From positions 325,314,001 through 325,378,000 of the forward strand of contig OZ024741.1 in NCBI GenBank assembly GCA_964016885.1: a DNA stretch of 64,000 nucleotides, in the 5' to 3' direction. Source of the DNA: Eledone cirrhosa. Lineage: Eukaryota. Under the pieces are notes generated by a model. It had not been told where the DNA came from. It did no database searches and was given only the letters and a program-made list of their open reading frames with translations. Below, piece by piece: positions 1 through 50,480 of this stretch; the stretch's first letter is position 1; every line of letters begins with the position of its first letter. A program made the translations under genes and the position numbers.

Positions 1-2690
1 ACGCGAAGCACGAAGGCTGCGTTGTCCGAAGTAAAATACGTGCTCTAGGGAACGAGGGGACCAAAGCTGTTAGCTGGGCCCGCGTGACAGAGGCCAACAG
101 TGGAACTAAATCCACCATCCGGTCTTTGCGAGACCTGGATGGACGGGCGATTCTTGAGCCTAAGCAGATGTGTGAGGCCTTTCAAAGGCACTTTGCCCGA
201 CTGTTCGGGAGGGGCGGGGAGCCGGTTGGGAACGTGGACTTCGGTCCATACCTCGACGGCCTGCCGCGCCTCTCGGACAGGGAGGCGAAGTCCTGCGAGG
301 AGCCGATTTCGGCCGCTGAGATAGAGGACGTGCTGAGCCAATGCGGCAAACGCAAATCCCCGGGTCTCGATGGTCTTCCTTACGAATTATATCTAGCTAT
401 GCCGGACTTGTTCCCCGATCTCCTCGAGGCGGTCTACTGCAACTGGCAACAGAACGGGAGAATTCCCTGTACTGTGACCAAGGGCGTAGTCACGCTAGTG
501 AGGAAGGACGAGAACAAGGGGGACGAAATAAGTAACTTCAGGCCCATAACTCTGCTAAATACAGAGTTACAGATTTTGGCCAAGGTGCTAGCAAAGAGGT
601 TGGCGCTTGTCGTGGGCAACCTGGTGGGAGATGCGCAGACATGCGCTATCCCGTCCAGGTCCATCCATGACAACCTCCACCTCATGCGATACATCATAGA
701 GAGGGTTGGGAACGAACCCGGCTTTGGTGGGGCTCTGATCAACTTGGATCAATCTAAGGCGTTCGATAGGGTCGACCATGGTTACCTGGATGCGGTGCTA
801 GCGGCGGCAGGCTTCGGACCCGTTTTCAGGGGCTGGATCACTTCTATGCACAGCAGCCGCATCTGCTCTAGGGTCAAGGTGAACGGCTACCTCTCGGAGC
901 CGTTCAAAATCGCGCGGTCCATCCGACAAGGGTGTCCTCTCTCCTCCCTTCTGTATGTGTTGACTCTCGAGCCACTACTGCGGAAGTTGGAGTTGTTGCA
1001 GGGCATCCCTTTGGAACCGGGATTGCGGAAAGCGGTGTCGGCCTACGCCGATGACGTGACAGTAATGGTGTCGACGGCCTCCGAAATCGAGGCGGTCGGC
1101 ACCTTACTGGAGGAGTACGAAAAGTTCACAGGGGCTAAGCTGAACCGGGACAAGTCGATCGGTTTGCAACTCGGCACGTGGAGGGGCAGACCGATGCCCT
1201 CCGATGGCGTCGTCGGACGCTGGACGGAGGGCCCGGTGAAGTTGCTCGGGGTCTGGTTCGGACCGGACCTCCAGGTGGAGAAAAACTGGGCGGAGGTTAC
1301 GAACAGGGTGTTTGCACTGACCCAGAAGTGGGCCAGTTGCAAACTATCCCTGAAAGGTCGGGCGGAGGTGGCGAACACCTACATAGCGTCCGTCATCTAC
1401 TTCCGCCTGACCGTAGTGCCCTGCCCAAGGGAAACCCTCACCAAGATGGAGCGCGCGCTCTTCCAATTCCTTTGGAAGAGGCGGGCTCCTATGGTGAGGA
1501 GATCCATCTGCTGTCAACACCCTTCGAAAGGAGGGCTGGGGATGCCGTGGCTAATGATGCGTAGACACGCATTAAGGCTACGGCACCTCTACGTATTCCT
1601 CACCGGACAACCGGTGTGGGCCTCGTTTGTGAGACGAACCTTTCCCAGACTCGTCTCACTCACCGAGCTGCAATCCTGGGTCAAGCAAAGACCGAGAAAA
1701 CTGGGCGCCTGGCACACTGAGTGTGCCCAGGCGCTCACCGCCCTCTGGCAGGCGGATCCGGTTATCAGTGGAGACTCCACCGCAACATTCTATAGAGGGC
1801 TGGTACGCAGCAGGTGCGACGACGCCCTCGGAGAAGCCCTAGACATGGAGGAGGACGAACTGGCCAGCCTGTTCGGTAGGACATTCAGCCCGGGACCTAT
1901 GGACAACTTCCAGAAGTCCCTGGCCTGGCAGTGCTACCGAGGGGCTTTACCCGTTCGAGAAAGGCTCTACAGACACGGGCGCCCGGGTAGGGACCCCGCC
2001 AAAAAGATCTGTCCCAGATGCGTGTGCGACGAGGAAACCGTTGCACACGCATTAGTACACTGCTCGGGCGTAGCCGATCTGTGGGGCTATGTCGAACAAC
2101 TGCTGTCAAGGGTGGGACCGATCCGGTTGACCACCGAGTCTATTGTAATGATCAAGCCGCCTCCCCCCTTCAAAGATGAAGCAGAGGCGGTGTTTCTGTG
2201 CGTAATAGCCATGGCGAAAGAGGTTGTATGGTGGACGCGTCTGAAAGGACTGAGGTCGGGCACCTTTCTCTCTGGCCAACAACTGGTCCGTTTCTTCCGA
2301 TATCATTTCGGAAGAAGGATCAGGATGGAGAGAGAGGTGCTGCACCCCAGCCGTTTCTATGAAAGATGGGTGAAAGTGGCGAGAATGGCCCGTGTGAATG
2401 GGCCTTCACTCTACATCAGACTATAGGTGAGGAAGATGAAAGACCAAGGGAGTACCCCTTCTCTGTGCTCCTGAGGAGAAGGGTTGCACACTTTTTTCGG
2501 GGGTGTGTGCGACCCCCCAAGGCGCCTCCTCTCTATTGAGGATTTTGTTAAAAATTTTATTTTTTGTTATATCTTATTTTATTTTTATATTTTGTTACTG
2601 CCTTCTCCTTATTGAGGACGCCTTTTTGTGTAAACTCCCCCCTTTGTACTTGTCCCACTTTTGATGCCCTAGTGGCAAATAAAAGAAATA
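1..2690 (+). mobile_element. Tx1/L1-type non-LTR retrotransposon copy E1 (young subfamily A; 5' end outside the window)
   Basis: ORF2 RT and C-terminal zinc finger, 3' UTR, AATAAA at 2678-2683, then (TATC)n; near-identical to E3, E5, E9. Confidence 0.95.
84..2426 (+). CDS. ORF2p C-terminal part (reverse transcriptase + C-terminal CCHC zinc finger); frame extends upstream of the window
   Basis: KSPGLDG, FRPITLLN, LDQSKAFDRVDH, SIRQGCPLS, YADDVTV, GGLGMP, CPRC..ETVAHALVHC. Confidence 0.93.
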   Translation: MTEANSGTKSTIRSLRDLDGRAILEPKQMCEAFQRHFARLFGRGGEPVGNVDFGPYLDGLPRLSDREAKSCEEPISAAEIEDVLSQCGKRKSPGLDGLPYELYLAMPDLFPDLLEAVYCNWQQNGRIPCTVTKGVVTLVRKDENKGDEISNFRPITLLNTELQILAKVLAKRLALVVGNLVGDAQTCAIPSRSIHDNLHLMRYIIERVGNEPGFGGALINLDQSKAFDRVDHGYLDAVLAAAGFGPVFRGWITSMHSSRICSRVKVNGYLSEPFKIARSIRQGCPLSSLLYVLTLEPLLRKLELLQGIPLEPGLRKAVSAYADDVTVMVSTASEIEAVGTLLEEYEKFTGAKLNRDKSIGLQLGTWRGRPMPSDGVVGRWTEGPVKLLGVWFGPDLQVEKNWAEVTNRVFALTQKWASCKLSLKGRAEVANTYIASVIYFRLTVVPCPRETLTKMERALFQFLWKRRAPMVRRSICCQHPSKGGLGMPWLMMRRHALRLRHLYVFLTGQPVWASFVRRTFPRLVSLTELQSWVKQRPRKLGAWHTECAQALTALWQADPVISGDSTATFYRGLVRSRCDDALGEALDMEEDELASLFGRTFSPGPMDNFQKSLAWQCYRGALPVRERLYRHGRPGRDPAKKICPRCVCDEETVAHALVHCSGVADLWGYVEQLLSRVGPIRLTTESIVMIKPPPPFKDEAEAVFLCVIAMAKEVVWWTRLKGLRSGTFLSGQQLVRFFRYHFGRRIRMEREVLHPSRFYERWVKVARMARVNGPSLYIRL

Positions 2691-2763
2691 TATCTATCTA
2701 TCTATCTATCTATCTATCTATCTATCTATCTATCTATCTATCTATCTATCTATCTATCTATCT
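2691..2763 (+). repeat. (TATC)n target/tail microsatellite between E1 and E2
   Basis: Pure TATC tandem repeat. Confidence 0.98.
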
Positions 2764-50224: not shown

Positions 50225-50274
50225 GTCTTTGTGTTGCCCCCTTTTCTTGTGCGCCCTTGTGGAAAATAAAGAAA
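50225..50274 (+). mobile_element. E12: ~50-bp extreme 3'-end fragment (E4-like subfamily)
   Basis: GTCTTTGTGTTGCCCCCTTTTCTTGTGCGCCCTTGTGGAAAATAAAGAAA resembles 13918-13967; TATC on both sides. Confidence 0.8.
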
Positions 50275-50480
50275 TCTATCTATCTGTATGTTTGCCTGTC
50301 TGTCTATCTATTTATATATGTATCTGTCTGTCTGTTTCTCAATCGATCTATGGATGAATCTGCCTGTCTGTCTCTCAATTGATCTATCTGCCTATCGTCT
50401 CTCCTTACGTCCGACCGTCTATCTATCTAGCTATCTATCGATTTATCTATCTGTCTGTCTGTCTATCTATCTATCTACCC
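50275..50480 (+). repeat. Degenerate (TCTA/TCTG)n tract at the 3' boundary of the second array
   Basis: Imperfect tetranucleotide repeats. Confidence 0.85.

Follow-up and report, generated by a model that had tools for sequence, protein, structure and literature searches.

Why do retrotransposons stand head to tail, on one strand and with (TATC)n between them, in the genome of the mollusc Eledone cirrhosa? The stretch in question, hereafter the window, comprises 64,000 nucleotides of forward-strand DNA (assembly GCA_964016885.1, contig OZ024741.1, positions 325,314,001 to 325,378,000). Self-comparison and mapping place 13 element pieces in window positions 1-50480, every one on the + strand and organized into two arrays. 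A preliminary description of this DNA had counted at least 12 copies or fragments of one retrotransposon lineage, all on the + strand and head to tail, from about 5-6 diverged subfamilies. Both counts hold: the 3′ 1.5 kb of the pieces sort into subfamilies A, B/B2, B3, C, D and E, which are 75-99% identical. The locus thus raises the questions of whether TATC is the target of these elements or only their tail, how they insert, and how one microsatellite locus came to span about 26 kb.

Target choice across the genome

The searched assembly comprises 3.0 Gb, from which we took the best 30 matches to each of four element tails (120 loci) and 38 copies of the youngest subfamily, B2. A 5′ junction was scored as TATC if two TATC units were present within 28 bases. 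In the four-tail set, 75 of the 120 loci have their 5′ end inside the fetched stretch, and TATC is found at 53 of these 75 (59 of 75 under a looser rule); among truncated B2 copies, it is found in 19 of 23. Combined, and after removal of two loci, of which one contains N and the other is palindromic, 72 of 98 5′-truncated copies carry TATC at the 5′ junction, compared to a background of 187 of 57,000 windows (0.33%) from 20 arbitrary 10-kb regions. Wrong-strand GATA occurs at none of the 75 5′ junctions. Another element's tail lies just upstream in 28 of 110 copies; where the 300 bp upstream are free of element tails, 5′ TATC is still present in 57 of 82. As the preliminary description had pointed out, a repeat that is only a tail should be missing from the 5′ flank of most copies. 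Both counts came out the opposite way, in line with its proposal of a long-lived (TATC)n-specific lineage that keeps the repeat on both sides.

TATC is also present at full-length 5′ ends (D, 27/30; E, 28/30; C, 27/29). Because the element RNA likely begins in the upstream repeat (see below), these counts are not independent evidence, and the case therefore rests on the truncated copies.

On the 3′ side, 136 of 159 junctions start with TATCT, 5 continue into (TA)n and 18 into other sequences, mostly degenerate, while poly(A) is found at none of the 159. For comparison, (TA)n tracts outnumber TATC tracts in the genome by about 22 to 1 (1470/Mb vs. 65/Mb). (TC)n is found at one of the 159 junctions (L086), and no copy is seen in (TTC)n. 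In the window itself, no element occupies the (TCT)29 tract at 22270 and, as had been noted earlier, none of the (TA)n, (CA)n and (TCT)n tracts is in contact with an element. The target-in-flank criterion given in PMC4494074, more than 20% of flanks, is exceeded on both sides (72/98 truncated 5′ ends; 136/159 3′ ends). Thus, TATC is a target of these elements and not only their tail; the 5′ and 3′ junction counts, with their (TA)n and degenerate or other sites, indicate a specificity that is strong but not absolute.

Target-site duplications were scored in the 110 copies with both ends, as exact matches of at least 8 bp, and compared to 200 rounds of flank shuffling. Duplications that include non-repeat bases are found in 22 of the 110, vs. 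2.0 on average and at most 7 after shuffling. The informative ones are 9-18 bp long (median 12), plus a doubtful one of 25, and begin at TATC, TACC or TATA; examples are TATCTATATGTGTG (L024) and TACCTATTACAT (L268). Empty sites were also rebuilt. The nick would fall within the TA of TATC, with TA^TC as the best single register, in agreement with 17 GAAA|TC junctions and three old copies. Two further loci, L270 and L272, have unusually long apparent duplications of ~32 bp (one mismatch) and ~43 bp, respectively, as judged by eye.

Several observations weigh against this account. Strict 5′ TATC is absent from 26 of the 98 truncated copies, some of which adjoin degenerate repeats and others unrelated sequence, and no TATC flank accompanies 2 of the 8 pieces (old, 69-76% identical) that the 20 arbitrary regions contain. 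Sampling the best 30-40 matches per search favours young copies. Among the 110 copies with both ends, 47 have no exact duplication of at least 8 bp, and in 41 the match lies in pure TATC alone and is uninformative; one of the 22 positive copies, L079, is probably a tandem duplication rather than a target duplication. Finally, the nick register is based on few old copies, and their fit to TA^TC could be explained by change after insertion.

In three subfamily D copies (L108, L110 and L118), the 3′ continuation is TATCTATTAT and the aligned 5′ side is devoid of TATC; perhaps the lineage has a further target, or these copies were captured in a different repeat. Public contigs from runs X5, X6 and X8 pass from the element tail into TATC; their coverage is of the 3′ side only, and TATC targeting across species is only hinted at.

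The lineage and its recent activity

The lineage belongs to the L1 group of retrotransposons without long terminal repeats (non-LTR). Its intact second open reading frame (ORF2), of 1145 amino acids (aa), matches Exo_endo_phos and RVT_1 above cut-off and zf-RVT under cut-off (E 4e-5), and contains the catalytic motifs of an apurinic/apyrimidinic endonuclease (APE). The closest solved structure is human L1 ORF2p (E 1e-47, vs. 1e-18 for R2), and the nearest named relative is an Argonauta hians protein (62-64%), which suggests an octopod host. The traits of the L1 group that are seen include APE, reverse transcriptase (RT) and a C-terminal zinc finger in ORF2, 5′ truncation and target-site duplications. 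In ORF1, the zf-CCHC match is weak (E 0.003-0.05, under cut-off), and the domain search finds no Transposase_22; its look-alikes, taken as a lead only, are zf-CCHC and ZCCHC3-type RNA-binding clusters (0.90-0.92). An ORF1 of the RNA recognition motif (RRM)/zinc-knuckle type, rather than Transposase_22, is associated with Tx1 in PMC5203782, and the present ORF1 weakly fits this type.

Membership of the Tx1 clade is likely. We built a quick RT tree of 73 rows, with the short Argonauta protein left out, in which the window subfamilies form one clade (98) that joins 12 unnamed relatives (100) and a Patella-containing group (97), and falls outside the fish/frog L1-like clade. The tree includes no named Tx1, Kibi or Koshi sequence. 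In a sister lineage of ~41% identity (the P0004, P0005 and P0047-P0060 group), the loop preceding the conserved YLDR motif of the endonuclease is longer in most members. A metagenome scan returned distant relatives only, at 36% or less, and the first 21 loci have no TATC tract.

Subfamily B2 is very young, and the lineage has been recently active. At least 39 dispersed copies on many contigs are ~99.5-99.9% identical to window 1900-2690 (B2), and among the 38 fetched copies 502 of the 703 pairs show no difference over 785 nt. ORF2 is intact at 1145 aa in all 14 of 14 full-length B2 copies, and an ORF1 of 593-596 aa is kept in 10 of them. Because these copies are top matches, the numbers indicate that a burst exists and not its share of the family. 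Local hopping is ruled out as the origin of the near-identical copies, which are dispersed. There is no RNA dataset among the public runs listed for the element.

Insertion mechanism and known systems

Taken together, we consider it highly probable that a multi-subfamily, two-ORF APE-RT lineage (L1 group, likely Tx1) inserts in one orientation into (TATC)n with short duplications, likely by endonuclease nicking of the (GATA)n strand and priming. In target-primed reverse transcription, an endonuclease nicks the bottom strand, and the resulting 3′ hydroxyl primes copying. Here, the element endonuclease would nick the (GATA)n strand, where reverse transcription would be primed. The 3′ junctions are seamless and the last two element bases are subfamily-specific (CA in 30/30 B, TA in 37/39 B2 and GA in 26/30 D). 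AATAAA precedes the junction by ~8 bases; the RNA thus likely extends a few bases beyond this motif, into the downstream TATC, and could pair with the primer, which would explain the absent poly(A). Among full-length C copies at separate loci, 15 of 25 readable 5′ ends share a degenerate TATC-like head (CTCTTTATC in 9, CCCTATC-like in 6). The RNA therefore likely starts inside the upstream TATC, and both of its ends could pair with the target. Every insertion would leave TATC on both sides, and one microsatellite could therefore take up insertions again and again; DNA-level copying between established arrays would then likely add large blocks, as for the 18.6-kb block of the window (see below).

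Alternatively, the endonuclease could be non-specific, and targeting could depend solely on a (UAUC)n extension of the RNA 3′ end, which would pair with GATA-ended 3′ hydroxyls at any nick. The absence of poly(A) at all 159 junctions and the repeat-like heads of C copies are consistent with this, as are three or four copies (L136, L115, L149 and L084) in which the 3′ junction reads TA but the duplicated target TG, as though the TA came from the RNA. However, several duplications begin with TACC or TATA (L268, L092), to which UAUC pairs poorly, and non-TATC upstream targets (L011, L125, L242, L268 and L271) gained no extra TATC units. In addition, the specificity of SART1/TRAS1 is reported, in PMC7265360, to be set by the endonuclease. 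Targeting by RNA pairing alone is thus improbable in our judgement, and nicking of the (GATA)n strand by the element's own endonuclease is preferred.

Other non-LTR elements that target microsatellites include Waldo (ACAY), Mino (AC), Dong (TAA) and Togen (TG); their repeats differ from that of the window lineage, and none is listed with GATA/TATC in the excerpts covered. They belong to clades other than that of the window lineage. Closer in description are the teleost Tx1 families Kibi, in (TC)n, and Koshi, in (TTC)n, and crocodilian Tx1 elements in (TTCC)n/(TTTC)n (PMC4494074 and PMC3812793). By description, the window lineage is, like these, an APE-type two-ORF non-LTR element with preferential microsatellite insertion. 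Unlike Kibi and Koshi, its target, (TATC)n/(GATA)n, is not a pyrimidine-only repeat, and at least six subfamilies share this one target, in mixed arrays of 25-41 kb, in a mollusc host. For Octopus vulgaris, the available part of PMC13282606 reports 13 recently active L1-Tx1 families and tabulates 421 insertions; these families may include the window lineage, and no target preference is given there.

In the literature searched, partly as excerpts, we found no description of a GATA/TATC-targeting element; Repbase, Dfam, the Octopus repeat library and the further Tx1 targets of PMC4494074 were outside this search and could hold one. Within that literature, elements of this kind are known but (GATA)n is new as their target, and it would extend the short list of repeats recognised by sequence-specific long interspersed nuclear element (LINE) endonucleases. 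Microsatellite-targeting Tx1 families are already familiar to specialists, and the surprise is moderate. The specificity is directly testable because many intact, near-identical copies exist, and a (GATA)n-directed integrase could be of use in gene insertion. The lineage, which makes up 5,290 of 200,000 bases in the small arbitrary sample, may also shape the GATA microsatellites of this genome.

Growth of the arrays

The left array begins upstream of the window (pieces at -8249 and from -6113) and ends at 13985, while the right array, the ~26-kb locus, extends from 23924 to ~50477. Ten (TATC)n tracts of 5-32 units lie between or flank the pieces (at 2691, 6420, 9169, 23924, 29046, 32798, 43758, 49558, 50148 and 50418), with an extra 3 TATC units at 13974-13985. 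The pieces had been described as separated by TATC except at two deletion junctions; most are indeed so separated, but three junctions are devoid of TATC, namely: 29207/8, 31554/5 and 38184. There is also an internal deletion at 12325. The features are as follows.

1..2690, + strand: 3′ half of a full-length copy of the young subfamily B2, with its 5′ end at window -3042; RT and zf-RVT lie in open frame 3-2426
2691..2764, + strand: (TATC)18 target tract
2765..6419, + strand: subfamily A copy, 5′-truncated, 83-85% identical to B
6420..6463, + strand: (TATC)10-11 tract
~6463/6464..9168, + strand: B2 copy, 5′-truncated, 99.4% identical to 1-2690
9169..9297, + strand: (TATC)~32 tract
9298..13966, + strand: subfamily C copy with full-length 5′ end and ~0.9 kb internal deletion at 12325, followed by the 3 TATC units
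23924..23982, + strand: (TATC)14, left edge of the 26-kb locus
23983..29045, + strand: subfamily B copy, with its 5′ truncation point inside ORF1
29046..29084, + strand: (TATC)7-9 tract
29085..29207, + strand: 3′ tail fragment of subfamily A, final ~13 bases missing, adjoining the next piece without TATC
29208..31555, + strand: B3-like internal piece that meets the duplicated block 198 bp out of register
31554..50201, + strand: 18.6-kb duplicated block (B3 3′ end, E, B, D and B2 fragment), matching G000:C2:325686807-325706740
31554..32797, + strand: B3 3′ end, first piece of the block
32798..32922, + strand: (TATC)30 tract
32923..38185, + strand: subfamily E copy, full-length at its 5′ side; 3′ end lost to a 1322-bp deletion with 2-bp microhomology
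38184..43757, + strand: subfamily B copy, near full-length, with a 3′ untranslated region ending in AATAAAAGAAACA
from ~38196, + strand: ORF1 of this B copy, with zinc knuckle
from ~40070, + strand: ORF2 of this B copy, with APE, RT and zf-RVT, broken near its start
43758..43870, + strand: (TATC)28 tract
43871..49557, + strand: subfamily D copy, full-length but decayed, 75-77% identical to B
49558..49578, + strand: (TATC)5 tract
49579..50147, + strand: B2 fragment, 5′-truncated
50148..50477, + strand: (TATC)19, a ~45-bp C-like tail fragment (~50229-50273) and degenerate TATC/TGTC; right edge of the locus

Among 40 scored places, there is no second copy of the 29207/8 junction. Genome-wide, 45 of 150 copies are followed within 300 bp downstream by the start of a same-strand element, vs. 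5 of 150 for the opposite strand, and three-piece mini-arrays are present in 2 of the 20 arbitrary regions. Two other arrays, of 41 kb (325673788-325714824) and 25 kb (325728560-325753771), lie ~340 kb from the window. Window 31554-50201 is colinear with part of the 41-kb array, with 64 substitutions in 18,345 aligned bases (0.35%; 99.4-99.8% identical). The 38184 junction is read as a deletion because the paralogous array keeps the missing 1322 bp, which span the tail of one element, a TATC tract and the head of the following one. Both block copies have diverged on their own, with 10 vs. 11 derived substitutions in B and 3 vs. 8 in D, and the unique flanks of the two arrays are not shared. 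From this divergence, the derived changes in both copies and the unshared flanks, ~70% of the 26-kb locus, or of the matching part of the other array, arrived as one block. Growth of the locus by successive insertion alone, as first proposed, is not supported, since 18.6 kb of it duplicates another array; the arrays are built by both insertion and block duplication.

The likeliest route of the 18.6-kb block is DNA-level copying between arrays. A giant single retrotransposition of the mixed array, from a read-through transcript of a still active, undescribed GATA-targeting LINE whose RNA has the repeat at both ends, is unlikely: the block terminates in an element tail and TATC, is cut on its 5′ side and contains a microhomology deletion, but the two copies are only 340 kb apart, which favours DNA-level copying. 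It is more doubtful still that the window array is partly an assembly artefact, in which shared repeats led the assembly to take in sequence from the array at 340 kb distance or from its other haplotype. Such an error could account for the near-identity of the block to the other array, for its right edge inside a TATC tract and for near-identical duplicates elsewhere in the assembly (L047/L048), but not readily for a left edge 198 bp out of register with 2-bp microhomology, the private 1322-bp deletion of the window copy, derived substitutions in both copies, the absence of duplicated unique flanks, or the lack of an N gap in either array; moreover, the targeting conclusion is independent of this locus. 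None of the public contigs listed over the 38184 junction bridges it; the same runs miss several variants of the copy and contigs drop rare forms, making this result uninformative on misassembly. We give very little credence to the arrays being tandem duplications of few copies, with TATC merely the element tail. Block duplication is real, and 28 of the 110 copies do have another tail just upstream, but neighbours come from subfamilies that are 75-86% identical and their 5′ truncation points differ, while the isolated copies with 5′ TATC (57/82) and the duplications with non-repeat bases contradict it.

The arrays had been likened to those of SART/TRAS. According to PMC7265360, SART1 and TRAS1 belong to the R1 clade and target telomeric TTAGG, SART1 having a poly(A) tail. 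Like them, the window lineage inserts into a short tandem repeat in a specific orientation and leaves this repeat in place for further hits, and its same-strand neighbours (45 vs. 5 of 150) agree with this architecture. Unlike them, it belongs to the L1 group, occupies interstitial microsatellites and has 159 of 159 junctions devoid of poly(A), so that the likeness is architectural only. Tandem R1 and other tandem elements arise, according to PMC5932611, by double insertion and then unequal exchange. The present arrays share these two stages, repeated insertion at a duplicated target and later DNA-level expansion; unlike R1, which is one family at a fixed site, they involve mixed subfamilies at many dispersed microsatellites. 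A regenerating target and later DNA-level copying could turn a microsatellite into a mixed array of tens of kb, away from telomeres and ribosomal DNA.

Other structures were observed at or near these arrays. L259 (G000:C3:279839501-279849500) contains a palindrome: opposite a full-length B2 copy, which has two array neighbours downstream, stands an inverted partial copy accompanied by the same neighbours. This may be a fold-back duplication or an assembly artefact. L047 (C1423) and L048 (C4), on a small and a chromosome-scale contig, respectively, have an identical two-element arrangement with identical flanks, which suggests duplicate haplotype sequence in the assembly. Just past the left array, beyond a TA/CATA stretch, window 14081-16283 (+ strand) holds a Penelope-like element with RT and GIY-YIG and one stop at 14964-14966. 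Decayed frames at 54693-56103 (+ strand), with (TA)n interruptions and no Pfam match, have YVDD and GETAR motifs that resemble it. A ~185-bp repeat similar to a short interspersed nuclear element, for which, as for the window, no tRNA or Rfam match was found, occurs in four copies that are 90-97% alike (17355-17545, 19425-19624, 21142-21337 and 22045-22234), the first being inverted relative to the others. Finally, the rearrangement junctions at window 31555, window -4454 and G000:C2:325751186 fall at nearly one ORF2 position (around GTGAAGTTGCTCGG), which may reflect a recombination or template-switch hotspot, or chance.

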